Sequence record: PZ445514.1
DNA from: a phage
Direction: 5' to 3' (one strand)
DNA: 64,000 bases
Shown here: in pieces, positions 4,474 to 20,194 of the stretch
Layout: the number at the start of each line of letters is the position of its first letter
Position numbering within the stretch: the stretch's first letter is position 1
Notes under the pieces: generated by a model
The model's database searches: none
What the model was told of the DNA's origin: nothing
The model's input: the letters and a program-made list of their open reading frames with translations, nothing else
Translations under genes and position numbers: made by a program

Positions 4474-4493
4474 ACTTTATCTCCTGCATTCTC

Positions 4494-4826: not shown

Positions 4827-4833
4827 ATCATAC

Positions 4834-5025: not shown

Positions 5026-5056
5026 AATACATCACTCTCTGTTAGTTTATGCGTAT

Positions 5057-5084: not shown

Positions 5085-5088
5085 CCTC

Positions 5089-5283: not shown

Positions 5284-5492
5284 AAGCCCTCCTCAGTCCT
5301 CCAGAACAAATACCAACTCTCCGGTAAATGTTTTTGCAAAGTAATAGCCTGAACATTCATCACTTTTGTACAGCCACCACGTGTCCCAGTCAGGAAGTCG
5401 TACAAGGATATGCTAGGCCCATCTATTACTGGGTATTCTTCAAACGGCCCTTGATTATCCGATTGCGTGGACACACATATGCAGGTTTTCAT
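5280..5492 (-). CDS. hypothetical protein
   Basis: Start moved to internal ATG preceded by GGAGA 7 nt; ATGA overlap with upstream gene. Confidence 0.45.
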   Translation of the reverse strand: MKTCICVSTQSDNQGPFEEYPVIDGPSISLYDFLTGTRGGCTKVMNVQAITLQKHLPESWYLFWRTEEGL

Positions 5493-5659
5493 GCCAGAAT
5501 CTCCAGCCAGAAAGCGCACGGGAACACTTTGATGATTGAATCTTTACCCGGTTCGGCAGTTCTTTTTCCGTAGGGTAGGTAGAAATACCCTCCTGCAGAT
5601 TCGAACACAGCCCCTTCGGTTGTATCTATCACAGCTAGAATTAAGATTTTAGTCTCCAC
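5489..5659 (-). CDS. hypothetical small protein (56 aa, GTG start)
   Basis: GTG preceded by GAGAGGAGAG; stop overlaps start of next gene; not in ORF track. Confidence 0.35.
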   Translation of the reverse strand: METKILILAVIDTTEGAVFESAGGYFYLPYGKRTAEPGKDSIIKVFPCAFWLEILA

Positions 5660-5713
5660 AGTGCTCTCCTCTCTTAGTTGTTGTGGAAACTATATCACCT
5701 CAGAAGATGGTCG

Positions 5714-6172
5714 TCAACACTTTTTGTACTCTACTACAACCACATCAATATCTGTGGTTGCAAGATTAATTACATCTTCTACATGTTCCCACTTTAGACC
5801 GCCAATACCGCATCCGATTTTAGGAATGTAGAACGGCAATGACACACCTTTGAATACCTCGTTGACTCGCTCAAAACCTTTCATGATTGAGAAGTATTCA
5901 GCATTGGGCCCTGGGTAGAACTGGGTATACAGGTTGATTCCATATACGACCCTGTTCTTGGCAAAATGCTCCCAACAAGAAAACATACCCAGCTTGTCTA
6001 GATTCCCATAAGCAGTCTCTTTGTCGGCTGCCAGTGCTTGAGGGAACTCACGGGCAATATCTTTCGCTATGCCTGCACCCATTGTGTGAAAGCAGTTACA
6101 ACCGTGGATCATGTGGCCTGACCCTTTCTTGAAAATGGAGATTAGATCTCCCTTTACAGTATCAATAATCAC
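5714..6172 (-). CDS. macrodomain protein, OARD1/TARG1-like putative ADP-ribose hydrolase
   Basis: By-eye match to OARD1/TARG1 signature from memory: VKGDL, H-x-C-N, MGAGIA, PKIGCGIGGLKWEHV; start uncertain (GTG at 6172 with GAGGAG upstream, or ATG at 6211). Confidence 0.7.
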   Translation of the reverse strand: MIIDTVKGDLISIFKKGSGHMIHGCNCFHTMGAGIAKDIAREFPQALAADKETAYGNLDKLGMFSCWEHFAKNRVVYGINLYTQFYPGPNAEYFSIMKGFERVNEVFKGVSLPFYIPKIGCGIGGLKWEHVEDVINLATTDIDVVVVEYKKC

Positions 6173-6587
6173 GGTATTCCAGCTCCTCTTCTGCAATTTC
6201 CAAAAACTCATCCCAACCCTGTGGCATATTTGAGTTGCCGAAGTGGCTTTCGTAGTAGAGATTTTTACCACTTGGAAGGTAGAAATCTGTTACCTCATAG
6301 AATCCACAATCGTCGCACTCACCTTCTTCAAACTTGGCCTCAACCTTAATACCGAGGAAGGTGAAAAGTTTATGGATATCTTCAGTTTCGAACTCCCAGT
6401 GAATGTTGTTTTCCGCATCGGTGTAGAACTGGATCAGCAGACCATTGTCCAGTTTACCAAAATACTCTGTGAAGTAACTTCCTTCCCAGAAATCTTTATG
6501 ACAAATAATATCCATGCGTTTGCCCATAATAATGGTGTGAGCGTTTTGGGCATCGTCACGAATCAGTTTTGGCATTTCATAGATCAT
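6162..6587 (-). CDS. hypothetical protein, translationally coupled to macrodomain gene
   Basis: 141-aa ORF with GGAGAA upstream; 3' end overlaps the macrodomain gene start. Confidence 0.6.
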   Translation of the reverse strand: MIYEMPKLIRDDAQNAHTIIMGKRMDIICHKDFWEGSYFTEYFGKLDNGLLIQFYTDAENNIHWEFETEDIHKLFTFLGIKVEAKFEEGECDDCGFYEVTDFYLPSGKNLYYESHFGNSNMPQGWDEFLEIAEEELEYRDY

Positions 6588-6655
6588 CTTAGTTCTCCGG
6601 GTTCAACAGGTGGTGGTGCTACAGGAAGATCATAAAACATGGCTATCACAGTCTC

Positions 6656-6853
6656 TTACACAGGAATTGCTTCAAATAGACCGTTATCTATACCGTCCTT
6701 CAGATAGAGATTATATTCTATGTCGGTATCTGTATAAAGGGCAGCATCCAGCATTCTATCTGTGAGTCCATCCATCGGGTGGAGAAACCACCACCCACGC
6801 CAGTCAAAGTAACAGCCTGGTGCATCTTCTCTTACACGGATTCGATAAATCAT
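6656..6853 (-). CDS. hypothetical protein
   Basis: 65-aa ORF with AGGAGG upstream. Confidence 0.5.
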   Translation of the reverse strand: MIYRIRVREDAPGCYFDWRGWWFLHPMDGLTDRMLDAALYTDTDIEYNLYLKDGIDNGLFEAIPV

Positions 6854-6949
6854 GGGCAGTGGCCTCCTGTTAGTTATACATCCCAGTTTTCTTCGTTCAT
6901 CACGTCCTCCCGTTCTATGAAGTTATAATTGCACACCTTTCAACTTGTG

Positions 6950-7366
6950 TCAACAGAAAACTTCAACAAATTCTTCCACAGTTTTAATGTCGTGGGAAAA
7001 AGGTTTACGGCTATAACGGGCAATAGCACTATCAACCACCGCCCGGTACTCCAAATCTTCAGAATATTTCATGAAGCATTGCAGCGTCTCTGGGCAGATA
7101 GCTAAATAGCTCCACCACCCCTCTTCAGATTGGTAGTCGAATCCCATACTCTCCAACCATGAAGCATATACGCCTGCACCTTCAAGCCAGTGAGTATTTT
7201 CATCCAGAAACTTGTTAATAGACATGTGAGCTTCTAAGCATTTATCCAGCTCTTTTCCGTTAACCAGCCATGCACTGACTGTGGCGCATCCGAGGTCTAC
7301 AGATTGAGTTGACAGGTTGTATTGGTCATAGTTCTCAGGTTTAACAATGATATCTTCTAATGTCAT
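6950..7366 (-). CDS. hypothetical protein
   Basis: 138-aa ORF with AAGGAG upstream; first gene after terminator at 7384-7413. Confidence 0.6.
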   Translation of the reverse strand: MTLEDIIVKPENYDQYNLSTQSVDLGCATVSAWLVNGKELDKCLEAHMSINKFLDENTHWLEGAGVYASWLESMGFDYQSEEGWWSYLAICPETLQCFMKYSEDLEYRAVVDSAIARYSRKPFSHDIKTVEEFVEVFC

Positions 7367-7383
7367 TTTTCAGATCTCCTTAT

Positions 7384-7413
7384 ACAAAAATGCCCCACCC
7401 TTTCGGGCAGGGC
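7384..7413 (-). terminator. rho-independent terminator
   Basis: Minus strand GCCCTGCCC-GAAA-GGGTGGGGC followed by TTTTT; downstream of gene ending at 7429. Confidence 0.6.
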
Positions 7414-7428
7414 TATGTTAACTAGATG

Positions 7429-8655
7429 TTAGAATGGGATGTCATCATCAAAGGCGTACTGTGCTGGATTCTGATCCATCGGGTCATCTTCCTCGTCATT
7501 TACAGGAGGAGCGTCTACAGTGTTTTGCTGTGGAGCTGCTTCCTGTTTGGCAGCTTGAGGTTCTTGATGGTCAGTGGACTCAGCACCGTTCTTGATCCAA
7601 TCGTACAACGGCTCAGCCAGATTAGTCAAGACATCTTTTGCTTCTGCAGTAATTGCCGCTGCAAAATCATCAACTTTCGTTTTCTTGTCAATACGGCGAC
7701 AAGCGTTCAACACCGCATTACCGACACTGGCACCTACTTCATCTTCAGTTCGGTTGGTGGCTTGAGCATACTCTTTCTTAAGCTCAATGGTGACTACGTG
7801 CAGTGTTTTAGCCACGCTTAGTGGGTCATCCACTTTAAACCCGCGATCCAGGATGATCTGCAAAGCATTGATGCTATGCCCCGTCTCTACACCAATAGGG
7901 TCGTAAGAGGATTTACGCTTGCCACCAGAGCCTTGAGTGCCGTTCTCTGCCTTAGGTGGATAGGCTTTGAAACCACTGATAATGTTTCCGGTGTCTTTGT
8001 CAACAATGGCTGCAACACGACCACCTACTACCAGGTCTTTAAGCTGCTCATCAGTGACAACCATAGCACCTTCGCCAATCTTGTGGTCATTAACAGTAAC
8101 CACGTTGCCAACAATCTGAGTCACATCACCATAGATGCGTAAAACGTCCTGATTGGCATTCTGCTGAGGTTTCTGCTTCTGGCCTTGTGATTGTGCACCT
8201 TGTTGCTGTTTTTGCTGTTGAGTCGCTGCTGGGGCCTCTCCTGCACCCAGCTTAACCATTTTAGCCAGTGATCCTTTATAATAGGTCTTACCGTTATGCT
8301 CGTTTGCCTTCAAAGGGATATTTACGATCCATCCCGGCGTTACGGTTTCCCACTTGTCATCAATTTTAACAGAGACAGAGTCTTGATGACCAGGTTTAAG
8401 CAGCTTATCACCCATACTGATCCAAACTTCTTCACCACCTTGAAGCAGGTTATCAGAGGAATCCAGTTCAGAAATCAGTAAAGAGATGGTGTGGCTGGAT
8501 TCAATTTTCTTACCTTGCCACACAGTGGTTTTAATACCTGTTGTAGGATCAGCACCTTTGATAGGTTTGATGCTGACACGTTTAATCATGCCGTGAGCCA
8601 GTAAAACAGTTTCACGCGGATTCATCGGGTTAGCAAATTGTTGAATAACGCTCAT
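7429..8655 (-). CDS. putative ssDNA-binding / replication accessory protein with SSB-like acidic C-terminal tail
   Basis: 408 aa; Q-rich low-complexity linker; ends ...AFDDDIPF, the same tip as E. coli SSB; AAGGAG upstream. Confidence 0.55.
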   Translation of the reverse strand: MSVIQQFANPMNPRETVLLAHGMIKRVSIKPIKGADPTTGIKTTVWQGKKIESSHTISLLISELDSSDNLLQGGEEVWISMGDKLLKPGHQDSVSVKIDDKWETVTPGWIVNIPLKANEHNGKTYYKGSLAKMVKLGAGEAPAATQQQKQQQGAQSQGQKQKPQQNANQDVLRIYGDVTQIVGNVVTVNDHKIGEGAMVVTDEQLKDLVVGGRVAAIVDKDTGNIISGFKAYPPKAENGTQGSGGKRKSSYDPIGVETGHSINALQIILDRGFKVDDPLSVAKTLHVVTIELKKEYAQATNRTEDEVGASVGNAVLNACRRIDKKTKVDDFAAAITAEAKDVLTNLAEPLYDWIKNGAESTDHQEPQAAKQEAAPQQNTVDAPPVNDEEDDPMDQNPAQYAFDDDIPF

Positions 8656-9020
8656 TATTTGTCTCCTTGTTCTTCGTTAGTGTTTGCCGTGTGTGCAAAC
8701 CCTGCTTGAATTAATTTGTCCTGAACTTGAGCCAGCAGGCCCATTGCAAAACTTGTGGTCCCAGAGAGGGCCATCAGCATATCTCGTTGTTGAGCTACCC
8801 AACCTAAGGCATAGTCCAAACGACGATATTTTTCTTCTTCACGCAAAGCTTGGAATAATTGTTCAGCCTCTGGCTGTTGTGTGAGCTCCTGAAGTCTTCC
8901 CATGAAAGAAGAAAGCACTAGCAGAAGAGACACTTGATCTTTACTTAACCCTAAGAAAAATTCTTGAGGTTGTTCTTGCTCGTTCATCGCAACCGACGCT
9001 TGATCGTTCATTTGTTCCAT
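8655..9020 (-). CDS. hypothetical protein
   Basis: 121-aa ORF with GGAGA upstream; TAATG overlap with next gene. Confidence 0.55.
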   Translation of the reverse strand: MEQMNDQASVAMNEQEQPQEFFLGLSKDQVSLLLVLSSFMGRLQELTQQPEAEQLFQALREEEKYRRLDYALGWVAQQRDMLMALSGTTSFAMGLLAQVQDKLIQAGFAHTANTNEEQGDK

Positions 9021-9103
9021 TATGGAATCTCCGATTTTATTTGAACAACATAGAAGGAGACACTATTTTAGCATCCCCTTCTGTAAATTACAATAGGTAT
9101 TTG

Positions 9104-9349
9104 TTAGCCAATCACTTCGAAAGTTCCCCAATTCCCGTCCAGCAGGCAGGTGATCGGATCTCCATCGTCGTCAAAGATTTCAAAGTTTTCAGCATCCAGG
9201 ATGTGGCCCTCGAACACAATACTCTCGTCGCCACCACCAGAAATAACAGCGTATTCCTTACCTTGAGTCAAGTTTTGACACCCTTTGCCACCAAAACCTA
9301 CTTCCACACAACGTACTTTCTGTCCTGCGCGAGCAACTACTTCAGCCAT
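9104..9349 (-). CDS. hypothetical small acidic protein
   Basis: 81-aa ORF with AGGAGA upstream. Confidence 0.55.
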   Translation of the reverse strand: MAEVVARAGQKVRCVEVGFGGKGCQNLTQGKEYAVISGGGDESIVFEGHILDAENFEIFDDDGDPITCLLDGNWGTFEVIG

Positions 9350-9366
9350 CTTAAGGTCTCCTGATA

Positions 9367-9669
9367 TTAATCGTCAAGTTCAAAATAGATTTTAACAGCT
9401 TCATCAAAGATTGGAATCCCGATGTTGTTGATAAGCTGCCAAACTACCATATCTTTACCTGGATCTGGGAGAATGTCAACCTTTCTCCATGCGCTGTATA
9501 TCCAGTTCGGACCACCTTCTGCACTAACTGGCAGATTTTCACCAGCTTCCTGTAGATACTTATACAGCAAAAGATATTCTGGATACTCTAGAACACTGTC
9601 CTCTGTAGTATATAGCAGTTCACGGTATACTTTTAAAAACCCTGCGGGGGTGATGTTTTCAGTCTTCAT
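9367..9669 (-). CDS. hypothetical protein
   Basis: Start set to ATG at 9669 preceded by CAGGAGAAG; overlaps upstream stop. Confidence 0.5.
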   Translation of the reverse strand: MKTENITPAGFLKVYRELLYTTEDSVLEYPEYLLLYKYLQEAGENLPVSAEGGPNWIYSAWRKVDILPDPGKDMVVWQLINNIGIPIFDEAVKIYFELDD

Positions 9670-10048
9670 TTGCTGCTTCTCCTGCATTCATCAGATCTGC
9701 CATAGCGTCACCAACGAAGAGGACAACCACATCGTTGACAGCGTCAGCATCATCTTTGTTGACGTTGCTGAATTTAGGACACACAGCAATGATCATATAG
9801 ACACCGTTGCCCACCTGAACTGTCCGTGTGGTGCACATCATGGCGGTATTTGTGCCTTCTTTGAAGGCGAAGCCTTGAAGACGCTCCTCTAGAGTGTTAC
9901 CGGTAGATTTCAGAAGCGCCAGCTCGTCCAAGGCATAGATGATATCTCCGGAAGTTAGTGTTGCCTTTCCATCAGACACCATAATCACTCCATCAGCACC
10001 GTCAAGCTTAGAGGCTTCAAAGATATCAATATCCCAAATATTTTTCAT
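9659..10048 (-). CDS. hypothetical protein
   Basis: ATG at 10048 with GAGGA upstream; ATGA overlap with upstream gene. Confidence 0.55.
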   Translation of the reverse strand: MKNIWDIDIFEASKLDGADGVIMVSDGKATLTSGDIIYALDELALLKSTGNTLEERLQGFAFKEGTNTAMMCTTRTVQVGNGVYMIIAVCPKFSNVNKDDADAVNDVVVLFVGDAMADLMNAGEAANED

Positions 10049-10320
10049 CACGCTTCCTCGTCGTCTAAGTAATCATCAAGAGAGGTGAAGATTTCACCGA
10101 AGTATTCTAAGATTTCTAGCTCACGTGTGGTGCAGCAAACATAATCTCCTTGGTCGTCCTTAATAGTGGCCTCTTTACCCAGAATATCTACTTCAAGTTC
10201 ATCGTTCAACAGGACGGCCCCTGTGTAAACTTTGTCAGCTGTGCAGTCCCGAAAAGCAGAGTCCTTCTCCAGATAGTCTGGCTTAACCTTGGCTTTAATT
10301 CGTTGATATTGTTTGGTCAT
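10048..10320 (-). CDS. hypothetical small acidic protein, paralog of 10384-10638
   Basis: Shares AFRDCT..Y and KDDQGDYVCCT motifs with neighbour; start set to ATG after AAGGGG because ORF-track start is TTG inside a hairpin. Confidence 0.5.
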   Translation of the reverse strand: MTKQYQRIKAKVKPDYLEKDSAFRDCTADKVYTGAVLLNDELEVDILGKEATIKDDQGDYVCCTTRELEILEYFGEIFTSLDDYLDDEEA

Positions 10321-10383
10321 TGCTGTGGTCCCCTTTCGTTTTGATAGGGCCATTATAGTAGGCCCTATCACTGTTGTCAAGTA

Positions 10384-10638
10384 TTAATGTTCAGGTTTTA
10401 CAAAAACTACTTCATTAACAGTGCACCAGACAGAGTCTCCTTCATCATCTTTAAAGGTAAGGCACTGTGCTGAGTTTTCCAGCTCATCGATCTCTTCTTG
10501 TGATAAAGGGGCCCCTTCTTCCAGGAGGGCTTTTACCAGAGGGTTCTCACAAAACTCTGCTTCATAAATTGCACCGACTGTGCAATCTTTAAAAGCTCGG
10601 TCATTTGCAACGCATTCTGACTTCAAAGTAATTTTCAT
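10384..10638 (-). CDS. hypothetical small acidic protein, paralog of 10048-10320
   Basis: 84-aa ORF with AAGGAG upstream; AFKDCT and KDDEGDSVWCT motifs. Confidence 0.55.
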   Translation of the reverse strand: MKITLKSECVANDRAFKDCTVGAIYEAEFCENPLVKALLEEGAPLSQEEIDELENSAQCLTFKDDEGDSVWCTVNEVVFVKPEH

Positions 10639-10689
10639 CTTAGCAGTCTCCTTAGTTATTTAAAAATCAACGCTCTGTTTGTGTAAAGC

Positions 10690-10718
10690 ATCTTATATCT
10701 AATCTTACTTCTTGTCAA
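10690..10718 (-). promoter_or_regulatory. candidate sigma70 promoter (TTGACA -35, 17 nt, TAAGAT)
   Basis: Consensus -35 with weak -10 upstream of gene starting at 10638. Confidence 0.3.
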
Positions 10719-11086
10719 TGACTATTTTCAATCAGCCACACAGGGTCGAGGTAAATTTGTTGGCGTGTTGCCCAATGACAAACTTCATTGTACATCTGAA
10801 CCTCTTTGTCCGTCAGTTCACGAATAGGCTCATCTATACCCCCATTTTTGTGGTAATCCCAGTCGGCATCGATTTCCCACAGCCATGACTTGTTGTCACC
10901 ACGCTTACGCACACAGAAGTCACCAGGACGGCCTGCCAGTGCATTTAAGAACTCGTTCTCCGCTCGCTCCTGAAGAATACTAAGGAGCAAAACGTTGGAG
11001 CATGACCGTAAAATATGCTTCAGCTCACAATCATCAATCTCAACTTCAATACGTTGTTTGACTGTGTGGGTACCTTTTACTAACAT
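10715..11086 (-). CDS. hypothetical protein
   Basis: Start set to ATG at 11086 preceded by AGGAGG. Confidence 0.5.
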   Translation of the reverse strand: MLVKGTHTVKQRIEVEIDDCELKHILRSCSNVLLLSILQERAENEFLNALAGRPGDFCVRKRGDNKSWLWEIDADWDYHKNGGIDEPIRELTDKEVQMYNEVCHWATRQQIYLDPVWLIENSH

Positions 11087-11096
11087 ACTACCTCCT

Positions 11097-11291
11097 CTAA
11101 ACGAACTCTGCAAGAGTTGTGTTGTTCACTGCACCGCAGTAAATGGAGTATCCCAGCCCATTAGAGTGCAGAAACCACGGCGTGCCGAAATTATCTTTCA
11201 CGTAGACATCACCGTTGTTTGTAAAGGGCCAATATTCTTCCCCAAGGGTAAAATACCTATTCATACCTTCAGCAAGATACTTTACTTTCAT
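11097..11291 (-). CDS. hypothetical small protein, paralog of 11288-11515
   Basis: 64-aa ORF; similar to neighbour over the W-F-(I/L)-(S/H)-x-x-G and Y-x-I-Y(/C)-G motifs. Confidence 0.5.
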   Translation of the reverse strand: MKVKYLAEGMNRYFTLGEEYWPFTNNGDVYVKDNFGTPWFLHSNGLGYSIYCGAVNNTTLAEFV

Positions 11292-11515
11292 AGGTCCTCT
11301 TCAACAACTACAAACTTGGCAAGCAAAGTGGTTCCGTAGATATGATACTCGCCGTTTGCCAGATGGGAGATAAACCAGGCAACCCCTTCCTCGTCTTTAA
11401 TCATTTTATTTGCACGAGCTTTATCGTAATAAACCTCGTAGGTCTTTCCTTCTTTAAAGAATGACAGGTCTGTCATCTTTTCTTCTACAAAAGTAGCTTT
11501 AACCAAAGTTGTCAT
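11288..11515 (-). CDS. hypothetical small protein
   Basis: 75-aa ORF with AAGGAG upstream. Confidence 0.5.
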   Translation of the reverse strand: MTTLVKATFVEEKMTDLSFFKEGKTYEVYYDKARANKMIKDEEGVAWFISHLANGEYHIYGTTLLAKFVVVEEDL

Positions 11516-11829
11516 TGATCGGTCTCCTTCTTGTTAAGTCTGAATACTGCAATAATAGCATTCCCAAGGTGCAGTGTCAAATCATTTCCAAGATACCACA
11601 GCATCCCACGGTCATCTTTAATGAAAGGGTAGCAATTTGGTGCCTTCTCTTTAATGAAAGGGTGACAATCTGGTGCCTTCCAGACATTGTACACTTTCCC
11701 AACCTGAAAGAAATCAGGCCCTGTCGGGATTTTGGTGCCTGGCCACACTTGAGATACCTGAACACACTCCACCTGCATAATAACAGGGATAGTCATGGAT
11801 GTAAATGTTTTTGTTGGCTCTACTACCAT
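11512..11829 (-). CDS. hypothetical protein with internal 11-aa tandem repeat
   Basis: Start set to ATG at 11829 after AAAGAGGAGA; encodes HPFIKEKAPNC / YPFIKDDRGML from a 33-bp tandem duplication. Confidence 0.5.
   Translation of the reverse strand: MVVEPTKTFTSMTIPVIMQVECVQVSQVWPGTKIPTGPDFFQVGKVYNVWKAPDCHPFIKEKAPNCYPFIKDDRGMLWYLGNDLTLHLGNAIIAVFRLNKKETDQ
11615..11680. repeat. 33-bp tandem duplication (2 units) inside a CDS
   Basis: Units starting 11618 and 11651 differ at a few positions; in frame, giving an 11-aa protein repeat. Confidence 0.6.
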
Positions 11830-11878
11830 AAAAGTCTCCTCTTTGCTCAACAACACTTCCATGTGTTGATAGTTTACA

Positions 11879-14656
11879 TTAGTGACAATCACCCCAATTA
11901 CGACCACACAAGTATTCACCTGTGATCTGGAACGGGACTCCCATCATTTTAGAAGCTTGCCAGAAGCAATGCACCACCATTTCACCCACAGGGCTCCAGA
12001 TAAGTTCAAGCTTCCCGTCATCGTTCAGGATAGGATCGTACACCGTGTTTCCGTCTCTGTCAACCACTTCGTTTCCGTTCTCATCCTTGCGTGCCTTTTT
12101 GTACTTATGACCGTCAAACACATGAAGTTTGGCTTCCTGCTCTGCCTTAAATGCTTCCAATTCTTCAATTGTGTCGAAGGTGTACACAGTCTTATACTTA
12201 GGCGTGTCAGGGACTTGAAGTTGGTACTCATCATGGTAATAAATAATACGACGAACACCTTCATCGTACCACCCACGCTTCACCATTTGGTGGTGCATGA
12301 GTATCCCAACTAAGTCACACAACGATGCACCGCCATTTTGTTGGTATGCATTGAGTAAAGAGTGTTTAGATCGAGTCCAGATAGCATGACCATCAAAAGA
12401 GTAGATAAACTTCTTACCCGTTGCTTCCCAGAATTTCTCCAGATCTTCTTTACGCCCCTTAAGACCCGGGTTGGCATCCCAGAGTGCATCGATTACCCTT
12501 TGTCCCAACTCTGGAGAGATATCCAGCATATCTGCAACTTTATCTTTTTGTGCCCCGTACATAACCCCATACGTGATAGGTTTACCGTCGTTACGAGATA
12601 CCTCTCTGCCTGCTACTTTTGTATATGCCTCGGCGTTGTTTTGGTGTGCGTCTCCGTTACTTACAACATCATAATACAAGCCGTTGTCGAACTCAAAGGC
12701 ACCCCAAGCCCCGATAAGCTGCTCTAAGTTGGACCCGTCAATACCGATCTCAAAGTATCCCGGAGGAACACCCCACAGACTACGCATCTCTTTACCCATA
12801 ACCACTTTAGGAGATGGTTTAGGCATGTTCGCACAAATACTGTGTTTCTGTCGGGAAGTGTTTGTTAACCCAGAACTTTTAGCAGGAAGCTTATGGTCAA
12901 TCTTCAAACGTGGGTGATTAAGAAGACCAGTATCAACCTTATCCTCCTTGATTGGATCAAGTACCGATCTGCGGTTTCGCAATGATAACCACAAGACGAT
13001 ATCTTTAGCCATCTCTCCGTTCAATTTTTCAAGATTAGGGCATAGGTGTCCAAACGTATCTTTCAGTTGCGGAGAAGTAATAAGTGCCCTAGCTTTTCTA
13101 CGTATTTTCCCGAATACTTCCTTTTTAATCCTTTCGGAGTTAGGAAAGCTTCGGAACTTGTGCACGGTTGTCTGGAACTTAGCATCAGTTTTGTTCCAGA
13201 AGTTGATAATCAGGTCACAATACTCTGACTCTAAAAGCTCGTCCATATATGCATATACTCGTGCATCAACATCTGCATCAGGTAGAGCTTTCTTCTTGCT
13301 GTCTTTAGTTACATCCTTAGTTCTCCACATTGTCGGAAGCCAACCAGCACTGATCAGGTATCGCTTAATGTCGTCCTGGTTGCTGATTTTCATAGGTATC
13401 TTGCAGTCCGGCATTCGCTTCTGCTGTAGATCACTTATTGCCTGATCCATTAGCTCTTTAGGTAAAGGTTGTGGTGTGGAGGTGCCCTTAATATAGCCTC
13501 TCAAGAAATCAGCCATCTTATCGGGGTCTTTGCAGCCCATCTCTTCACACCATTTTATCCCCATCTTACTGACATCTCCTGTAGAGGTAAATGCTCGCTT
13601 AGGCGGGGCTTTGAACTCTAAAGCGCTCATATCTACAGGATAGCCAAGCTTATCTTTTAACCATTTCCAACCATTATTGGAGATTGTCCCATCTTGGTTA
13701 AACGGCTTTTCAGGGAACTTGGGCCGCTGAGACATTGACAGCTCTTTTAAAGGTAGTTGCGGTTCAACACGATCAGCGATTTCTTTCATCCACGCATCGC
13801 AACGGTCACGTAAAGCAATAGCCCCATCTATGTCAAAATACACACCCTGACGGGCCTGCAGCTCCATCAGGAAGTGCTGCAGCATGCCTCGGCGTAATGC
13901 GTTCTTCCAGGTGATCTTCTTGAACCCTTTCGGCTTCTCTTTGGCAGGATCGTACATAAAGTTCTGCATGTCAGATTTGCCGTAGAATACACCTTTTGAT
14001 TCCGCTACCAGCTCTTTCCAGAGCAGCTCCTGGATGATAACGTCCTCGAATACACGATCCACATACTTCCACAACGGAAGATCGCGCCAGTCATCAATTT
14101 GAACTTTCTGGTTACCAAGGGCGTAGCCCCATGCCATAAGGCCGTGAGGACCGACAGGCTGCATTTTCTTAGTAACCGGGTTGAATACAGAGTCCGGACA
14201 ACCTTTTGGTAAAGGGCGATCAGGCCATAAGATTCGGCTCATCGCCAACGTATCAAACAGGTTGACCTGGTGGTCGTTGATAGTCCCCATGCATTTAGGA
14301 TCACGGAACATATCAAAATGAATACCGGATAATCTTTCCATCAGCATAAAGTCATAACTGTAGCAGTTATGGCAGTTCAAAGCTGTTGGTGACCAGTCGG
14401 AATTGCCTGTAAGCCAACCTTCTAACTCCGAAAAATCTGCTATGCGAACTTCAAAATCTTTATAAAGAGTTTTCTTTGCCAGAATAAAGTTCTTAGCCTT
14501 CTCTATATCCTCCTCGGAGTAGTGTGTGCGGTCATTTAGAGGAAGGAACAGCATAAAACGGTTCTTATTCAGCTCTTTAAACAGGCCGCAGTGATAATAA
14601 AGATCTGGGTCTTCCAGCAAACCGGATGACTCAAAATCGAAAGACCACATGCTCAT
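11879..14656 (-). CDS. DNA polymerase, family A, with 3'-5' exonuclease domain
   Basis: 925 aa; Exo I FDFESSG near N-terminus; Pol motif B K..YGVMYG and motif C YYHDEY; AAGGAGA upstream. Confidence 0.9.
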   Translation of the reverse strand: MSMWSFDFESSGLLEDPDLYYHCGLFKELNKNRFMLFLPLNDRTHYSEEDIEKAKNFILAKKTLYKDFEVRIADFSELEGWLTGNSDWSPTALNCHNCYSYDFMLMERLSGIHFDMFRDPKCMGTINDHQVNLFDTLAMSRILWPDRPLPKGCPDSVFNPVTKKMQPVGPHGLMAWGYALGNQKVQIDDWRDLPLWKYVDRVFEDVIIQELLWKELVAESKGVFYGKSDMQNFMYDPAKEKPKGFKKITWKNALRRGMLQHFLMELQARQGVYFDIDGAIALRDRCDAWMKEIADRVEPQLPLKELSMSQRPKFPEKPFNQDGTISNNGWKWLKDKLGYPVDMSALEFKAPPKRAFTSTGDVSKMGIKWCEEMGCKDPDKMADFLRGYIKGTSTPQPLPKELMDQAISDLQQKRMPDCKIPMKISNQDDIKRYLISAGWLPTMWRTKDVTKDSKKKALPDADVDARVYAYMDELLESEYCDLIINFWNKTDAKFQTTVHKFRSFPNSERIKKEVFGKIRRKARALITSPQLKDTFGHLCPNLEKLNGEMAKDIVLWLSLRNRRSVLDPIKEDKVDTGLLNHPRLKIDHKLPAKSSGLTNTSRQKHSICANMPKPSPKVVMGKEMRSLWGVPPGYFEIGIDGSNLEQLIGAWGAFEFDNGLYYDVVSNGDAHQNNAEAYTKVAGREVSRNDGKPITYGVMYGAQKDKVADMLDISPELGQRVIDALWDANPGLKGRKEDLEKFWEATGKKFIYSFDGHAIWTRSKHSLLNAYQQNGGASLCDLVGILMHHQMVKRGWYDEGVRRIIYYHDEYQLQVPDTPKYKTVYTFDTIEELEAFKAEQEAKLHVFDGHKYKKARKDENGNEVVDRDGNTVYDPILNDDGKLELIWSPVGEMVVHCFWQASKMMGVPFQITGEYLCGRNWGDCH

Positions 14657-14714: not shown

Positions 14715-16793
14715 TTAAAAAGGTGTTTCATCATCCTCAAAACCAGGAACATGGTCAGAGGACGGATCATCGTACTGGAGTTCTTCCTGCGTGTCAACAG
14801 GCTTAACAGTAGGAGTTACAACCTTATCAGCCACAACCTTGCCCATAGGTGTTTCTACAACTGCATGCTCCTGATCCTCAAACATAGCCTGAGGTCTCCA
14901 AACAACCTCCCCACCTTCTCCATCTGTAAACATTTGCATTTCTTTGTCCCAGTACCAATTACTGGCATCATGGAACTTACCTGTGTGCGGGTCCATAACC
15001 AAAGTGTCAGCAATACCTAGAGTTTTTGCTGGACGGTTTTTAAGACCTACCAGACGGACACGTCCACGAGAACGATCCACCATTTCTTCGGCCTCGACAC
15101 CTATGACTACCCAACTCAACTGTTCAAGCCCCGCCGATCCTCGCAAATTCTCTTTTCGCACAGGATACCAGAAAGGTAACGGGTTACCATCCTTGTCCTT
15201 AGGAGGCACAATCTCTGTACGTTTGAGGTGAGCGATCACCAAGATAAACACGTTAAACTGCTTACAAAACGCAGCCAGCTGAGTCATAGCCATGTCCAGT
15301 TCTTTTCGCTCATCCTTAACATTAAGCCCTGAAATTACCATGGACAGGTGATCCAGCACAATATAACGGCAATGGTACAGGCAAACCATTTGCTTAAGCT
15401 TGGTAATCAACTCATCCACCGGAATAGACCCGAAATGTTTGAACACCTTGATTTTTCCAGCTTTTGCCCATGATTGGTGAATCTCTGCGTGTTCTTGATC
15501 AGTTAAAAACTGGCTAGGATCTTCAACAAACTCTTTAACATCAAACCCTAACTGGTTTGCATACAAGGAGTTAATTGCTTCCTCTGGGTCCTCCTCAAGA
15601 TGGATCATACATAGACGATCATCCTCTTCATAGTCATCAGCCTTCGGGCATGTCGGGTCCATTAGGTATCTTGCAATACAGTGTTCCAGTTTTTTAGCTA
15701 CGGTTGTTTTACCGCCACCTGATGGACCTGTAAGCATTACGAGTGTCCCTTTGTGCAAGCCTTTTAGCATTTTTTGCAGTTTTGGGAACTCTGCGCTGAT
15801 ATCTACCCCGTTGGAAGTCTTTTTCCGCAAAGACTCGATAGAGAAGTCTTCTAAATCCGACACCGCATCAGGCACATATTTAACAGGATGCCGGAACATG
15901 TTGACAATATCTTCCAGCTTTTTAGCCTTCAGCATGTCTCGGATATCTTTTACACCGTCAGGGTCGTTTACTTCACCAGGGTATTCTACGTGGTAAACGT
16001 TATCAGCCATCAAAAATGCTGCGATATTGTGCGTGGCCTCAACACCTTTAATGACGTGTTTTTGCTTCTCTACCTCGTTAGCTGCATCGTTATCCATTGC
16101 CAGCACAACTGTTCCATAGCTACGGATAAACTTCTCATTGTTTGCAAAAGTATCTACTGCGTTTGCACATCCACAGTTAATTCCAACAAAAGGCAGGCAG
16201 GGTTTTCCTGCCAGATCACCACCGTTGATAACTGCATCGATCCCGTCCTGGACCTCTTTAGCCCACTGCTTCACCTTTGCCGGGGCTTTAGCGTTGGTGA
16301 GAATCCCTTTTACTTGTATCTGATATGCAGCCTGCCATGCTGCAATAACATCACCTTCCCCCTCACAAACGTTAATTTGCTTACGGTTGTTGGAAGATGC
16401 ACACAGCTTTTGCCCAAACATCTGAGAGTTAGCCTTTACTATGCCAACAACTGAGAAATGGCCCCTTTGCTCTTTAGGAATCGTCCAGTCACGCTTTTTG
16501 AAACCGGACAGATTTCCGTAGCGGTCGTAATATGGGAAATATGTTGCAGTGACTGTCACACCGTCTTCTTGTGACAATGCTGATCGCACACCAAAATATT
16601 GTGCAGCCATCAGACCGATATTTTGTTGTGGGACAGGGACAATTTTAGTATTTTCTAAAACAGTCTCTACAGTTTCAACTTCTTTTTCATCACGATAGTC
16701 TCGTTTCACACTTCCCCCACTTTTATACTTAGTTGCTTTCGGGTTTGGCTCACCGAAACGGTTGTATGCAGATGCCATAAATTTACTTCCCAT
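14715..16793 (-). CDS. bifunctional DNA primase/helicase (Toprim primase plus DnaB-family helicase)
   Basis: 692 aa; Toprim acidic motifs EGEGD and MDNDAAN; Walker A GPSGGGKTT and Walker B IVLDHLS. Confidence 0.9.
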   Translation of the reverse strand: MGSKFMASAYNRFGEPNPKATKYKSGGSVKRDYRDEKEVETVETVLENTKIVPVPQQNIGLMAAQYFGVRSALSQEDGVTVTATYFPYYDRYGNLSGFKKRDWTIPKEQRGHFSVVGIVKANSQMFGQKLCASSNNRKQINVCEGEGDVIAAWQAAYQIQVKGILTNAKAPAKVKQWAKEVQDGIDAVINGGDLAGKPCLPFVGINCGCANAVDTFANNEKFIRSYGTVVLAMDNDAANEVEKQKHVIKGVEATHNIAAFLMADNVYHVEYPGEVNDPDGVKDIRDMLKAKKLEDIVNMFRHPVKYVPDAVSDLEDFSIESLRKKTSNGVDISAEFPKLQKMLKGLHKGTLVMLTGPSGGGKTTVAKKLEHCIARYLMDPTCPKADDYEEDDRLCMIHLEEDPEEAINSLYANQLGFDVKEFVEDPSQFLTDQEHAEIHQSWAKAGKIKVFKHFGSIPVDELITKLKQMVCLYHCRYIVLDHLSMVISGLNVKDERKELDMAMTQLAAFCKQFNVFILVIAHLKRTEIVPPKDKDGNPLPFWYPVRKENLRGSAGLEQLSWVVIGVEAEEMVDRSRGRVRLVGLKNRPAKTLGIADTLVMDPHTGKFHDASNWYWDKEMQMFTDGEGGEVVWRPQAMFEDQEHAVVETPMGKVVADKVVTPTVKPVDTQEELQYDDPSSDHVPGFEDDETPF

Positions 16794-17547
16794 TAATTCT
16801 GCTCCTTACTACAGGCTCGTTTGCCAGGAATACGGCTTTTGCCCAGCCACGTGGTGTGAGGCTTCGAATCATCTTCGTTCTTGCACTCTTTCCACCCAGC
16901 TTGGCGTGTTGCATGGAATACCCGCTAACCACGTCAACTATTTGCGGGACAGGTTTTGTGGCTGGGATTATAAATCCATTACCTATCCAGCCGCAAGTTA
17001 TTTTTGGATAGGCATCACGTGGAGCTATAAATTCAGGAAACCATGGGTTTACATCATCTTCCGGTAAATACCCGCCATAATCCGAAGGGTGAAAACGGTA
17101 ATCAGGTTTGCGCCACAGTGTGGACATAACACCCACAGGATTCTCTACATGCCACGGGCAATCGTAAATCTCTCCCAGCTCTTCCGCAACCCGAGCATCC
17201 TTTACAGCATTAATTTGGATCATGGGGTCCTTAGCCAGCTTTTTCTTAAAATGTGCAGCACCTGATACCGCTAAATGCGTGCACGGAGGAAATGCAAGAA
17301 TAAAATCTGGAGCCGGATACATGCAAAAAGTTTCCTGAGGGAACCACGGGTCAATCCAATAGTCCACATAGTGAATGTTGGGATGATCGGTGATCACCTC
17401 TGCATAACTGCCGTGATCAGCGCCTTCTGCATTAAAGCACAGGCACAGGTACCCAGCTTTTGCCCAGTCAATGACTGCACCACCAGACCCGTCAAATAGA
17501 CTCCACACAACACCTTTGTGGTAGTGTTCTTTGTAGATAAATTTCAA
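16783..17547 (-). CDS. putative DNA C5-cytosine methyltransferase-like protein
   Basis: Motif I FDGSGG, motif IV FPPC, motif VI-like VENP; short, no obvious target-recognition domain; start set to TTG after AGGAGA. Confidence 0.55.
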   Translation of the reverse strand: MKFIYKEHYHKGVVWSLFDGSGGAVIDWAKAGYLCLCFNAEGADHGSYAEVITDHPNIHYVDYWIDPWFPQETFCMYPAPDFILAFPPCTHLAVSGAAHFKKKLAKDPMIQINAVKDARVAEELGEIYDCPWHVENPVGVMSTLWRKPDYRFHPSDYGGYLPEDDVNPWFPEFIAPRDAYPKITCGWIGNGFIIPATKPVPQIVDVVSGYSMQHAKLGGKSARTKMIRSLTPRGWAKAVFLANEPVVRSRINGK

Positions 17548-17563
17548 TTTGCTGTCTCCTAAT

Positions 17564-17592
17564 GCAAAAAGCCCCACCCTTTCGGGCAGGGC
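17564..17592 (-). terminator. rho-independent terminator
   Basis: Near-identical copy of the 7384-7413 hairpin followed by TTTTT on the minus strand; downstream of gene ending at 17599. Confidence 0.6.
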
Positions 17593-17598
17593 CTAGTG

Positions 17599-18081
17599 TT
17601 AAACCCGGATACCTATTGTATACTCGGTGGATACCAATGTCAAATCTAAATTTAAAATTTCTTGCATCTCATAATATGCGTCCAGGGTTAGATACATTTC
17701 CCCATCCTTTTCTGCATACTTGTCCAAGTGCTTAAGGCATTTCGGATAACTATCGAGTGCAGCTTTCAGACACTCAAATTCTGTGCTGTTAATGAATCCT
17801 TCCATCTTAGCTACCCGTTCTGGAGTAACGATAGCACTGTAGTGAGATTTAGCTTCCTGAATGCAATGGGTCCAAGCATCAACTTTCTCTTCGAAAAGCC
17901 CGAAGAACTTCTTTTTGGTGAGCTTCAGATTCTTTAAGTGCTTAAGCACTCGGTTGCCGATCACAGCCACATCACGAAACTTAAGGATCACTTTGTCGAT
18001 ATCCTCGCGGCCTATTTTCACAAAGCAAGCCTCGCACATTTCAGGAGTGGCATAGCCTACTTTCCACATAAAATCTGACAT
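17599..18081 (-). CDS. hypothetical protein
   Basis: 160-aa ORF with AAGGAGAG upstream. Confidence 0.6.
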   Translation of the reverse strand: MSDFMWKVGYATPEMCEACFVKIGREDIDKVILKFRDVAVIGNRVLKHLKNLKLTKKKFFGLFEEKVDAWTHCIQEAKSHYSAIVTPERVAKMEGFINSTEFECLKAALDSYPKCLKHLDKYAEKDGEMYLTLDAYYEMQEILNLDLTLVSTEYTIGIRV

Positions 18082-18093
18082 AACACCCTCTCC

Positions 18094-18489
18094 TTATTCC
18101 TGAAAAGCAACGATATCATATGAACTTGCAGATGATCCTGGTGAAGAATGACTCCAGTCTAGGTCATCAGAGTAGTCAGCGTACTGTGCACCACTACGTA
18201 GTTTGTATTTTACCCACTTACCTGGTGCAGGGTTTTCACCACCTTCCCATACTTCCCAGCCTTCTGGCAGGCCGTCCTGGGGGTAGTCATCCACCTCACT
18301 AATAATCTTAGGGTTTGGCACCAAGATCCCTGCAGGCTCTTCCTTCCTGATAAGTGTCCACACAGTGTAGGTGTCTGAGCAGGCGCATGATAGCAAAGTA
18401 TATCCACTATTCAGAACTTCTGCAAGCTCTTTCTCAGCATCTTCCAACTTGGTTAAGTGGTATTGGACAATCTTCACATCTGTAATCAT
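18094..18489 (-). CDS. hypothetical protein
   Basis: 131-aa ORF with GGAGG upstream; ATGA overlap with upstream gene. Confidence 0.55.
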   Translation of the reverse strand: MITDVKIVQYHLTKLEDAEKELAEVLNSGYTLLSCACSDTYTVWTLIRKEEPAGILVPNPKIISEVDDYPQDGLPEGWEVWEGGENPAPGKWVKYKLRSGAQYADYSDDLDWSHSSPGSSASSYDIVAFQE

Positions 18490-18794
18490 CAGAAACCTCC
18501 CACTTCTTCGGCAAATGCAGCTGCTGTCGTCGCTGCATCAAGATAGGACTCTAGTTCACGGGCTGCACGTTTGTAAATTGAGTGGCGCATATCGTTTGGC
18601 AGTTTGTGGAAGTCCACCTCTTCACCGTTGTGGTAAACATGCACATCAGTGATCTGTCTAAATCCATAATAGTCAACATCAGAATCACGACACTCTGGGT
18701 CTGGCAACTGGACAACTGCCTGAGCTTCCACAGTGAACATATCGTCAAGTTCAAAATCGATTTCAAAAGTGTATGGTTTATAACGTTTCATCAT
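18489..18794 (-). CDS. hypothetical protein
   Basis: Start set to ATG at 18794 just past the methyltransferase stop. Confidence 0.5.
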   Translation of the reverse strand: MMKRYKPYTFEIDFELDDMFTVEAQAVVQLPDPECRDSDVDYYGFRQITDVHVYHNGEEVDFHKLPNDMRHSIYKRAARELESYLDAATTAAAFAEEVGGF

Positions 18795-18807
18795 TTGATT
18801 GTACTCT

Positions 18808-20133
18808 TTATTGATCAGACTTATCTTTCGCAACTAAGGCCGGGGCAAGTTTGTAATAACGGAAGCCACCACCACCTTGCCAGTTTACAGACTTAGAAAT
18901 ACCCCCTTGATCTTCGCCATCGATCACTTTTTCCAAGCGCGGAATAATATGGGTATGACAATGATCACCTAGCTCGATTGAGATCCAGCGTCTTTTCATC
19001 TTATGAGCTACAGCAGCAGTAGTTCCCGAACCACCGAATGAATCCAATACCAAATCGCCTTCTCGCGTGCACATTTCGAAAATCCGCTTCAAAAGCGCTT
19101 CTGGTTTTTTCCCATTTTTGAAACTAACGCCGCCTTCATTTGCTATTCCATTCCAACTAATGTCTGTCCAAACATCAGTTATTAGTTCCGCAGGTTGCAT
19201 CTCACCGTCAATTTCCAAAAGCCTATTGGAGTAAAAGACCATTTGCCTACCATTTGCGATATAAAATCCTTCAACATCCTCATTTGGATGTACATAAACC
19301 TTATCCCTATCTTTCTTTGACTTCTCGATAGTTTCTTTTCTCTTTATTTTAGCACCACCACCAATTGCAACAGATTGAAATACACGTTCTGCATTATCAA
19401 TTGCGAATTGTGCTAATTCATCATCGAATGTATCAGGCAGTTTTTTCTTGGCTTCTTTTGCATCTTTATAGCCATTGGCCTTTGCAAACGCATCGGCAAT
19501 ACCGCACCACGTCCAATTTTTATAATGGTCATCCGGGTTTAATAGGTATTTGTTATATCCTGTATCATACCCTTTAGGTATATAGATTTTGTTAAGCGGT
19601 TTCTGGGTGCGATCTTTTGCATATACAAGCAAAAAGTTTGCTGTGGAGAAAACTGTGGCTCCTGTTGCCTTAAATCCCGAAGGGGAATTTGTGGTCATCG
19701 ATATAGTATTTAACTGATTTGCACGACCAAAAATCTCGTCCATCAAAACTTTTAAATACGCCATTTCGCAATCATCTAAGTGAACGAATATTACCCCATC
19801 ATCACTTAGAAGATTACGAATTATTTCTAACCTATCCCTCATTAAGCCCAGCCAAATGGAATGCTCCAGGCTATCATCGTAATGCTCAAAAGCCCTCCCG
19901 GTATTGAATGGTGGGTCTATGTAAACACACTTCACTTTGCCTGCATACTCTTGCTCTAGCGCCTTCAATGCTAATAAGTTATCTCCAAAAATCAGTTTAT
20001 TATCAAAAATATCGTTTTCGGTCACTTTCTGGCTGTGGTAAGATTTGCTAGAATCTTCTAACAAAATGTGTGGCTCTAACTTTTTGCGCTCGTTTTTACC
20101 TATCCAGGTAAGTTCTAATTTGGTTTTGCTCAT
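18808..20133 (-). CDS. DNA methyltransferase, beta-class amino-methyltransferase (N6-adenine or N4-cytosine)
   Basis: 441 aa; DPPF motif near N-terminus and FGGSGTT AdoMet motif near C-terminus; AAGGAGAG upstream. Confidence 0.8.
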   Translation of the reverse strand: MSKTKLELTWIGKNERKKLEPHILLEDSSKSYHSQKVTENDIFDNKLIFGDNLLALKALEQEYAGKVKCVYIDPPFNTGRAFEHYDDSLEHSIWLGLMRDRLEIIRNLLSDDGVIFVHLDDCEMAYLKVLMDEIFGRANQLNTISMTTNSPSGFKATGATVFSTANFLLVYAKDRTQKPLNKIYIPKGYDTGYNKYLLNPDDHYKNWTWCGIADAFAKANGYKDAKEAKKKLPDTFDDELAQFAIDNAERVFQSVAIGGGAKIKRKETIEKSKKDRDKVYVHPNEDVEGFYIANGRQMVFYSNRLLEIDGEMQPAELITDVWTDISWNGIANEGGVSFKNGKKPEALLKRIFEMCTREGDLVLDSFGGSGTTAAVAHKMKRRWISIELGDHCHTHIIPRLEKVIDGEDQGGISKSVNWQGGGGFRYYKLAPALVAKDKSDQ

Positions 20134-20194
20134 CGTTTGGTGCTCTCCTTAGTTTTTTGTGGGGAGGAGGCCTCCCCTTTATACTCACATCTTA

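Follow-up and report, generated by a model that had tools for sequence, protein, structure and literature searches.

What does a phage gain from two DNA methyltransferases of different classes encoded among its replication genes, and how did it come by them? We addressed this question for a 64,000-nucleotide (nt) stretch of phage DNA from sequence record PZ445514.1, referred to below as the window. The ~5-kb part that holds both genes is 100% identical to Escherichia phage rV5_ev147, an rV5-like Vequintavirus, and shows 97-99.7% identity with dozens of Vequintavirus genomes, among them inoa, nom, WalterGehring, slur16 and APECc02. The two open reading frames (ORFs) lie on the minus strand at 16783..17577 (264 amino acids (aa) from a GTG) and 18808..20133 (441 aa). 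GenBank entries already label the short gene "Dcm-like C5 cytosine methyltransferase" or "site specific DNA methylase" and the long gene "putative N6 adenine methyltransferase". A first-pass annotation made from the sequence alone had proposed two enzymes of different classes that protect the phage genome against host restriction. The class assignment was borne out. The motifs that it quoted (FDGSGG, FPPC, VENP, DPPF and FGGSGTT) are all present in the minus-strand translations, and these motifs, a PF01555 match and family and fold comparisons define a C5-cytosine fold and a beta-class N6-adenine enzyme. Our interpretation, to which we give a probability of about 0.7, is that these are two independent orphan DNA methyltransferases with different histories, one a compact C5 enzyme and the other a captured Type III Mod protein that lacks its C-terminal domain (CTD) and would pre-mark the phage DNA.

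The 441-aa enzyme closely matches a host Type III Mod

The 441-aa protein carries D73-P-P-F76 and F366-G-G-S-G-T-T372, with DPPF ahead of the glycine-rich motif as in beta-class enzymes. PF01555 is matched at E = 4e-42 over residues 67-393, and the protein aligns with the solved Type III Mod proteins 6k0w and EcoP15I (EcoP15I Mod residues 52-522). The PADLOC profile MTase_III (PDLC03636) was matched at E = 1.5e-205, over profile positions 2-444 of 575 only. Database relatives of the protein number in the thousands, many of them bacterial proteins of 570-600 aa at 60-77% identity. Residues 1-439 of the phage protein share 96% identity with the E. coli Mod P0123 (567 aa, 334 member sequences), and genes with 95% nucleotide identity to the phage gene occur in 24 of 5,426 complete E. 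coli genomes (0.4%), all of them chromosomal; CFSAN004176 and 2014C-3011, both PacBio-sequenced, are among these hosts. In these 24 genomes mod is followed after ~22 nt by a gene for a 910-912-aa ResIII-domain protein, and PADLOC recognises the pair as MTase_III (2e-284, full length) and REase_III (9e-191). The specific E. coli counterpart is thus the 567-aa Mod P0123 (WP_197710788) with the Res protein WP_024226320. Because the 441-aa enzyme is 96% identical to the Mod of a complete host mod-res pair, the idea of protection gains real support for this enzyme.

The phage itself appears to hold no partner nuclease, as the first-pass annotation had observed. Domain searches found no restriction-endonuclease-like domain in the neighbouring or mid-sized ORFs of the window, and the curated annotation of the 99.6%-identical phage WalterGehring lists no cognate endonuclease or Res across the equivalent 64 kb; the cognate Res exists in E. 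coli hosts. Among phages the 441-aa enzyme is essentially confined to vequintaviruses, with 88 records at ≥90% identity, and its next phage relatives are ~40% identical and occur in genuine Campylobacter phages (CP20, Los1 and NCTC12673). At least 16 other records named 'Campylobacter phage' (host C. jejuni; e.g. MG065646, MG065674, MG065677 and MG065654) are 96-99% identical to the window across the region; their hosts are probably mislabelled or the preparations were contaminated.

The host mod-res pair adjoins tRNA-Sec in an island that also encodes a MAD1-type helix-turn-helix (HTH) protein, a DrmD-like SNF2 helicase, AbiD and an AIPR/AbiU protein. In E. coli CFSAN004176 (NZ_CP014583, mod-res at 2978093-2982559; island in extract 2919-13464) the HTH protein, the 964-aa DrmD-like helicase, AbiD and AIPR/AbiU genes precede mod-res on the same strand, near an integrase, and these genes may constitute one composite defence system rather than independent neighbours. 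Two assignments of the island were considered. The label ARMADA II was rejected for the lack of a YprA-DUF1998 helicase and of a UvrD-like protein, and for MADS the HTH protein is the sole component matched. We therefore describe the island as a Type III pair in a defence island.

The mod cassette lies at the start codon of a resident gene

Homology with E. coli mod starts ~13 nt ahead of the ATG and extends to host codon ~450. From alignments against CFSAN004176 and phage navn, the mod cassette occupies approximately 18792..20146 (minus strand), counting ~13 nt of microhomology in the leader and, beyond the stop codon, ~20 nt that resemble host sequence. DNA alignment and sequence place an 11-nt deletion relative to the host mod gene at 18817..18818 (minus strand). 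The deletion follows AAAGATAAGT in the phage copy and shifts the frame onto the TAA at 18810-18808, and the ~20 nt of host-like sequence continue beyond this stop. In ~30 vequintaviruses, among them navn, phiWec189, MiataMamis, I29 and HMD-6, the flanking sequences match in two pieces that span 2,157 bp, versus 3,501 bp here; ~1,344 bp are therefore cleanly absent from these sister phages. The cassette is present in nom and in WalterGehring (Bas51).

The empty site is preserved in navn, in which the shared leader (the hairpin, AAGGA and AGCACTAAACGATG) passes straight into ATGAAACGTTATAAACCA, the start of a 100-aa ORF. In the window the same ORF (18489..18791, minus strand; phrog_4240, with no assigned function) comes after the cassette. 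The navn sequence thus indicates that the cassette was inserted at the start codon (ATG) of this resident gene, with short CAAA(C/T)GATG-like repeats on either side. The leader in E. coli, AGAGCACAGAAATGATG, is similar to that of the phage, AGAGCACCAAACGATG, and this similarity suggests recombination through microhomology. An AAGGAG ribosome-binding site at 20145..20150 (minus strand) is resident phage sequence; it drives the 100-aa ORF in cassette-free phages and mod here. The leader further contains a perfect 7-bp GC hairpin (20161..20177, strand not assigned) that is kept in the cassette-free navn.

Were the 11 nt still in place, Mod(1-450) and the 100-aa ORF would form one in-frame fusion. 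A fossil of this fusion is found in a 114-aa ORF with a TTG start (18489..18833, minus strand), the first 14 codons of which are host mod in its original frame (…INKEYN…), joined to the resident ORF. The common 'INKEYN' and weak PHROG matches had raised the idea that the 100-aa ORF is the detached CTD of Mod. This was rejected: similarity to host Mod is confined to the junction (E = 0.066), and the ORF is unchanged in cassette-free phages. As a separate observation, the phrog_4240 ORF gave weak matches to the small 'DNA methyltransferase' PHROGs 1573 and 2060.

Three kinds of sequence evidence indicate that the gene moved from cell to phage. In cells it is full-length, stands with its partner Res and has relatives in different phyla; in the phage it is truncated, with the lowest GC content of any gene in its block (39.9%, versus 40.2% for the corresponding stretch of host mod); and an empty site exists. 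The rV5 genome paper leaves the methyltransferases unmentioned and reports little evidence of horizontal acquisition. Despite this published picture, the rV5-type genome holds a clear host-derived gene.

The truncated Mod most likely keeps the host specificity

The phage protein ends at the equivalent of host Mod residues 439-441, and the host protein has 126 more residues. In the structural model of host Mod, a linker (439-445) is followed by an alpha/beta module (446-534). EcoP15I Mod consists of an N-terminal domain (NTD; 14-60), a methyltransferase (MTase) domain (62-262 and 390-516), a domain for target recognition (TRD; 263-384) and a CTD (539-644). Two Mod subunits pair by way of their NTD and MTase domains, and the resulting Mod2 is a methylase in its own right; the CTD of ModA makes extensive contact with Res. 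By analogy, the phage enzyme would retain the NTD, MTase domain and TRD for DNA recognition and methylation and would lack the module positionally equivalent to the Res-docking domain.

Phage and host mod differ by 44 synonymous and 15 non-synonymous codon changes over 438 codons. Together with the intact DPPF and FGGSGTT motifs, this pattern indicates purifying selection on the phage gene. Only N206S and A225T distinguish the two proteins within residues 180-330. The specificity of the phage Mod is most likely unchanged from that of host Mod, and the phage enzyme would then write a strand-specific N6-methyladenine (m6A) at the asymmetric site of the cognate system. A second CTD-less copy, 444 aa long and 85% identical with different N- and C-terminal ends, was found in a Logan contig from SRR16894903 (8001-9335). 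This contig comes from an unrelated phage type with NrdD split by HNH endonucleases, PhoH, ClpP and a Dam-like MTase, and without Res. Its presence suggests a separate capture or an exchange of the cassette between phages.

The short C5 enzyme belongs to a compact phage family

The short enzyme had been described in the first-pass annotation as truncated and as possibly non-canonical or inactive. Its length proved to be ordinary. The protein matches phrog_757 at 4.7e-87 and has 3,545 database relatives, nearly all of 220-260 aa. The family is carried by 1,506 of 50,697 sequenced-phage records, which include T1-like siphoviruses, Klebsiella siphoviruses, ~165-kb myoviruses, phAPEC8 and phages of the Salmonella SSE121 type. 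Within vequintavirus-like records the gene is kept in 117 at ≥90% identity and is a core gene of vequintaviruses. A length of 220-260 aa is thus the norm for a family of thousands, and of the two phage enzymes it is the 441-aa one that has been shortened.

Direct searches with the short protein gave no significant match in Pfam, NCBIfam, PADLOC or PDB sequences, and homology to C5 methyltransferases was for this reason established through the family and the fold. Nineteen of 29 relatives reach PF00145, weakly (best 1.3e-06), and the family profile searched against PDB gave only E ~0.5 to HaeIII and DNMT3B. The AlphaFold model of the short protein (pLDDT 88.5, pTM 0.87) has the three-dimensional fold of a C5 methyltransferase. 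The structures closest to the model are all C5-cytosine-methyltransferase folds, with Dnmt1, Dnmt2 and M.MpeI scoring lower.

Conservation was read from an alignment of 29 diverse family members. P-P-C, E-N-P, W-R, R-D-x-Y-x-K and GG...T-K-x-I-R-S-L-x-P-R are invariant (in longer form WRKP, RDAYPK and GGKS.RTK.IRSLTPRG), and besides the catalytic Cys and Glu ~45 further positions do not vary. In the 254-aa numbering, read from the translation, the catalytic motifs are F18-D-G-S-G-G23, F86-P-P-C89 and V134-E-N-P137. Motif I, L-F-D-G-S-G-G at residues 17-23, has its Gly and Ser conserved in ≥90% of the 29 members and aligns with motif I of HaeIII and DNMT3B. Motif IV is F-P-P-C89, in which P, P and C are found in 29 of 29 members; it aligns with PPCQ of HaeIII and with C82 of the Dcm protein of phage K42. 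In motif VI, V-E135-N-P, E, N and P are invariant and the Glu corresponds to E128 of K42 Dcm. The motif VIII region consists of DYGG, a 17-residue insert and the invariant R-D-A-Y-P-K182, in which K182 corresponds to K175 of K42 Dcm. From these alignments, FDGSGG would bind S-adenosylmethionine (SAM), Cys89 would be the nucleophile, and Glu135 of ENP and Lys182 at the motif VIII position are the predicted further catalytic residues. An invariant Arg in TPRG stands just before the last helix of the short protein, and DNMT3 likewise has an Arg in this region.

The lack of an obvious TRD, which the first-pass annotation had remarked on, was confirmed. Conservation over residues 151-200 equals that of the catalytic motifs, variation is limited to a loop of ~12 residues (~201-212), and no separate variable TRD is present. 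Absence of a TRD characterises the family, as it does the DNMT3 catalytic domain, and does not reflect truncation.

Functional information comes from phage K42, a strain of KarlJaspers/Bas06, which was studied in connection with retron Ec86 (10.1101/2023.08.16.553469). All K42 escape mutants had lost a 711-bp dcm gene. Expression of K42 Dcm raised 5-methylcytosine (5mC) in the multicopy single-stranded DNA (msDNA) of the retron, measured by mass spectrometry coupled to liquid chromatography (LC-MS), and activated the retron; a C82A/E128A/K175A/K176A mutant, the only context in which K175 was mutated, produced neither effect (10.1101/2023.08.16.553469). The 711-bp Dcm-like product of KarlJaspers (MZ501090) is 54% identical to the window enzyme over its full length (E = 3e-86), and C82/E128/K175/K176 of K42 Dcm align with C89/E135/K182/I183. 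The four residues C82/E128/K175/K176, in the numbering of the homologue itself, were found in 10 of 120 retrieved homologues. Given this kinship and the conserved motifs, the short protein is a full-length and probably active member of a compact phage C5 family.

Nucleotide composition was uninformative as to the target sequence. CCWGG occurs 111 times in the window versus 85 expected by composition and is not depleted. Oligonucleotide statistics over the same 64 kb indicated no specific methylation motif, with GATC not depleted and several 6-mers absent. CGATCG, TGCGCA, GGCGCC, CTCGAG and GCTAGC were each counted zero times, GAATTC occurs 4 times versus ~19 expected by composition, and GTAC and CTAG are the most under-represented 4-mers. 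The missing or rare palindromes are consistent with avoidance of restriction sites alongside methylation.

Gene layout and expression signals

Both methyltransferase genes lie in a replication/early block, with a family-A DNA polymerase, a DnaB-type primase/helicase, a Pif1/Dda-like helicase and rIIA/rIIB as neighbours; the earlier placement of the two genes in a replication module was a fair one, as the polymerase and helicase genes flank them. The C5 methyltransferase gene runs from a TTG at 17547 to 16783 (16783..17547, minus strand; 254 aa), with an 11-nt overlap between its stop and the start of the primase/helicase gene. The GTG at 17577, the mechanical start of the short ORF, falls within a hairpin, and a Shine-Dalgarno sequence AGGAG read at 17556..17560 (minus strand) lies 8 nt before the TTG. 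For these two reasons we take TTG 17547 as the start, which yields the ~254 aa given in the first-pass annotation and agrees with the BASEL annotation and with the 254-aa cluster representative P0001.

The hairpin, found in a terminator scan at 17569..17594 (minus strand) between the upstream ORF and the C5-like gene, is a GC-rich 11-bp stem followed by a U-run and is terminator-like (RNA fold -24.8 kcal/mol, z = -2.4 for 17594-17569). Directly upstream, a consensus scan identified the sigma-70-like sequence TTGACA-17-TACAAT (17615..17643, minus strand; 11/12 matches), which is a candidate promoter only, since promoter-like sites in the region are no more numerous than expected by chance. Candidate promoter and terminator-like hairpin (17569-17643) thus both precede the ribosome-binding site of the C5-like gene, and could point to a short leader RNA, to attenuation or to a 5' stabiliser.

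The 441-aa gene (18808..20133, minus strand) is identified as a CTD-less Type III Mod-like N6-adenine methyltransferase gene by PF01555, PADLOC MTase_III and identity to E. coli Mod. Two small conserved ORFs lie between the methyltransferase genes (17599..18489, minus strand), encoding 160 aa (phrog_12900) and 131 aa (phrog_11995); domain and PHROG searches returned nothing that ties either to methylation. Elsewhere in the window, a 185-aa ORF (5714-6271, minus strand) shows a partial match to the Macro domain PF01661 (E = 7e-06). Phage macro domains are able to reverse ADP-ribosylation or degrade defence signals. The DNA polymerase gene (11879-14656) is uninterrupted and encodes 925 aa. Its counterpart in WalterGehring, at 99.6% identity, is split, with putative homing endonuclease genes on its flanks, so that homing-endonuclease content differs among near-identical isolates.

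Discussion

We propose that a ~1.34-kb piece of a host mod gene entered the phage genome at the ATG of a small ORF via microhomology, and that an 11-nt deletion then separated mod from this ORF. Both enzymes would be made together with the replication genes and would methylate progeny DNA in any host, and virions would exit with 5mC marks and with the strand-specific m6A of the parent Type III system. In a cell that carries the matching Type III system, or a relative of the same specificity, the phage DNA would be read as 'self' and Res would not be licensed to cut. With the CTD gone, the phage Mod would be able to work alone as a Mod2 methylase that does not assemble with host Res. We infer the activity of both proteins, their target sequences and the protective benefit, and we regard protective self-methylation against that specific host Type III system as the best reading.

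Several observations weigh against this interpretation. The literature searches turned up no methylome, restriction-digest or methylation data for this phage or for any vequintavirus. The BASEL study found Vequintavirinae 'exceptionally susceptible' to all six restriction systems tested (EcoKI, EcoCFT_I, EcoRI, EcoRV, EcoP1_I and EcoCFT_II), and in Drexlerviridae it found no simple link between methyltransferase genes and resistance to restriction. From the susceptibility of the subfamily it follows that neither enzyme protects generally and that protection, if real, is narrow and system-specific. The first-pass proposal of self-protective methylation therefore gains ground for the 441-aa enzyme, a 96% copy of a host Type III Mod, and loses it as a claim of broad protection. 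The matching host system is moreover rare (0.4% of complete E. coli genomes), whereas the cassette is present in most vequintaviruses, so that selection may come from another agent, or from related systems in other hosts. The 126 residues that are missing correspond to the EcoP15I CTD in position and predicted alpha/beta architecture only. For the short enzyme, the second Lys of the motif VIII region (K176 in K42) is Ile (I183) in the window protein, the protein itself stays under Pfam and NCBIfam thresholds including that of PF00145, and the CCWGG specificity of K42 Dcm was presumed from that of host Dcm in experiments carried out in the dcm+ strain MG1655 (10.1101/2023.08.16.553469).

Alternative functions of the captured Mod have to be weighed against pre-marking. 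The CTD-less protein could act mainly as a decoy or poison subunit rather than as a methylase. With its NTD and MTase dimerisation surfaces retained, it could pair with host Mod or occupy recognition sites, and its complexes, for want of the Res-docking CTD, would neither recruit nor license Res, so that the host Type III enzyme would be disarmed during the ongoing infection. The protein is cut off exactly at the linker between MTase domain and CTD, EcoP15I dimerises via NTD and MTase domains while the CTD of ModA contacts Res, the 96% identity to the host subunit favours mixed dimers, and the CTD-less form was seen again in another phage. We nevertheless consider a decoy unlikely: DPPF and FGGSGTT, needless for a pure decoy, are intact under purifying selection, the gene is expressed only after DNA entry, when unmodified incoming DNA would already have been restricted, and the truncation point could simply mark a recombination site. 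It is a little less probable still that one or both methylations serve the biology of the phage itself, in transcription timing, control of replication origin or packaging, or strand discrimination, or that the mod cassette is a near-neutral passenger. Location of the enzymes in the replication module, the broad sensitivity of vequintaviruses to restriction-modification, dispensability of the cassette in ~30 natural isolates and rarity of the matching host system speak for such roles. Near-identity to a restriction Mod, including its recognition region, is most simply explained by a match to its specificity, and one-strand marking of an asymmetric site, as by a Type III Mod, is an unusual basis for a regulatory switch; purifying selection and retention in most isolates oppose neutrality.

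The remaining alternatives concern the short enzyme, for which the first-pass annotation had left room for an inactive or non-canonical protein, for instance a DNA-binding or regulatory protein without catalysis. Its shortness is usual for the family. The Cys of PPC, the Glu of ENP and ~45 other positions are invariant in 29 diverse members, the 54%-identical K42 member makes 5mC in vivo and loses this effect when the homologous residues are mutated, and retention in 117 vequintavirus-like records at ≥90% identity points the same way, all of which makes loss of activity very unlikely. A CmoX-like enzyme, which would transfer a carboxymethyl group from carboxy-SAM (Cx-SAM, supplied by E. coli CmoA) to give 5-carboxymethylcytosine, is the most improbable of the possibilities considered. 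CmoX is defined by S95-P-P-C98, and its genes typically stand beside genes for CmoA or a CmoY-type ligase. Its R350, at the position of HhaI N304, binds the carboxylate of Cx-SAM, and R233 is a candidate counterpart in the window protein. The window motif is FPPC, with the Phe conserved in the family (AFPPC or YPPC) in place of Ser, and neither CmoA (the Cx-SAM synthase) nor a CmoY-type ligase was found among the neighbours or in the annotation of the near-identical phage for the window-equivalent region. In addition, LC-MS showed 5mC as the product of the K42 enzyme, and an equal score in structure comparison is reached by DNMT3B, which is a true methyltransferase. For both genes, orphan methylation, directed by the captured Mod against its parent system, thus remains the interpretation that we prefer.

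A bolder proposal, doubtful as it stands, is that loss of the CTD is an adaptive and recurrent way of weaponising captured Mods to 'methylate and disarm', in which pre-methylation may be combined with mixed dimers or competition for sites so that host Res cannot be recruited; and, separately, that the C5 family has one specificity other than CCWGG. If true, such a single specificity would account for the extreme conservation of the C5 family in >1,500 phages and also for retron Ec86 reading it as a sign of infection. Since the family is sensed by this retron, carriage of the gene is a cost as well as a benefit, the cost being documented in relatives.

The transfer of mod is recent enough, at 95% DNA identity, for both recombination junctions and the ancestral empty site to remain readable. 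Public collections (BASEL and the Danish wastewater set) contain natural phages that have the cassette and others that lack it, and these provide a near-isogenic comparison suited to asking whether a captured Mod protects against its parent Type III system and whether loss of the Res-binding domain matters. The record is also corrected for the 'short' C5 enzyme, which is a complete member of its family. The literature searched holds no description of the donor Type III system, of the anatomy of insertion and truncation, of the presence/absence polymorphism, or of the link between the short enzyme and the retron-triggering Dcm family.

Comparison with known systems

The closest functional reference for the C5 enzyme is the Dcm of K42/KarlJaspers. 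The two proteins belong to the same family and share their architecture (236 versus 254 aa), and both superpose best on DNMT3-type catalytic domains; the authors of the retron study had superposed K42 Dcm on DNMT3A (10.1101/2023.08.16.553469). They come from different phages, a T1-like siphovirus and a vequintavirus, and the window protein differs from K42 Dcm in having Ile in place of K176, four extra residues (QIVD) in the sole variable loop and a longer C-terminal tail. With canonical C5 enzymes (M.HhaI, M.HaeIII and E. coli Dcm; PF00145) it has in common the Rossmann-type catalytic fold, motif I FxGxG, the PC of motif IV, the ENV-like Glu of motif VI and the C-terminal helix of motif X. 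It is ~70-220 residues shorter than these enzymes and has no separate variable TRD, and in place of the canonical QxRxR its motif VIII is remodelled as DYGG...17-residue insert...PRDAYPK. 'Dcm-like' is a label only, no similarity to the Dcm recognition domain having been demonstrated. The catalytic domains of DNMT3A and DNMT3B are 13-15% identical to the window protein with a template-modelling (TM) score of ~0.5, and the window protein lacks their regulatory domains and a DNMT3L-type partner; the resemblance to DNMT3 is probably convergent minimisation and not close kinship.

Compared with Type III Mod proteins (EcoP15I, EcoP1I, Mbo45V, H. pylori Mod 6k0w and E. coli P0123), the 441-aa enzyme is without the ~126-residue CTD and without a res gene. 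Unlike mod in Type III mod-res operons, the phage gene is an accessory cassette expressed from a phage leader within the replication operon. Methyltransferases without an adjacent restriction endonuclease on a mobile element, which pre-modify its DNA for export, are a known kind (EcoSal review PMC12707154). Phage orphan methyltransferases are well known as an anti-restriction strategy and both genes had already been annotated in GenBank, so that the finding of two such genes as stated is ordinary. Anti-restriction orphans of phages include Dam of the T-even phages and T1, Dmt of P1 and the multispecific C5 enzymes of the Bacillus phages SPR and phi3T. Unlike in those cases, the donor of the vequintavirus mod can be named at 95% DNA identity, the junctions can be seen, and the domain coupling Mod to Res is gone.

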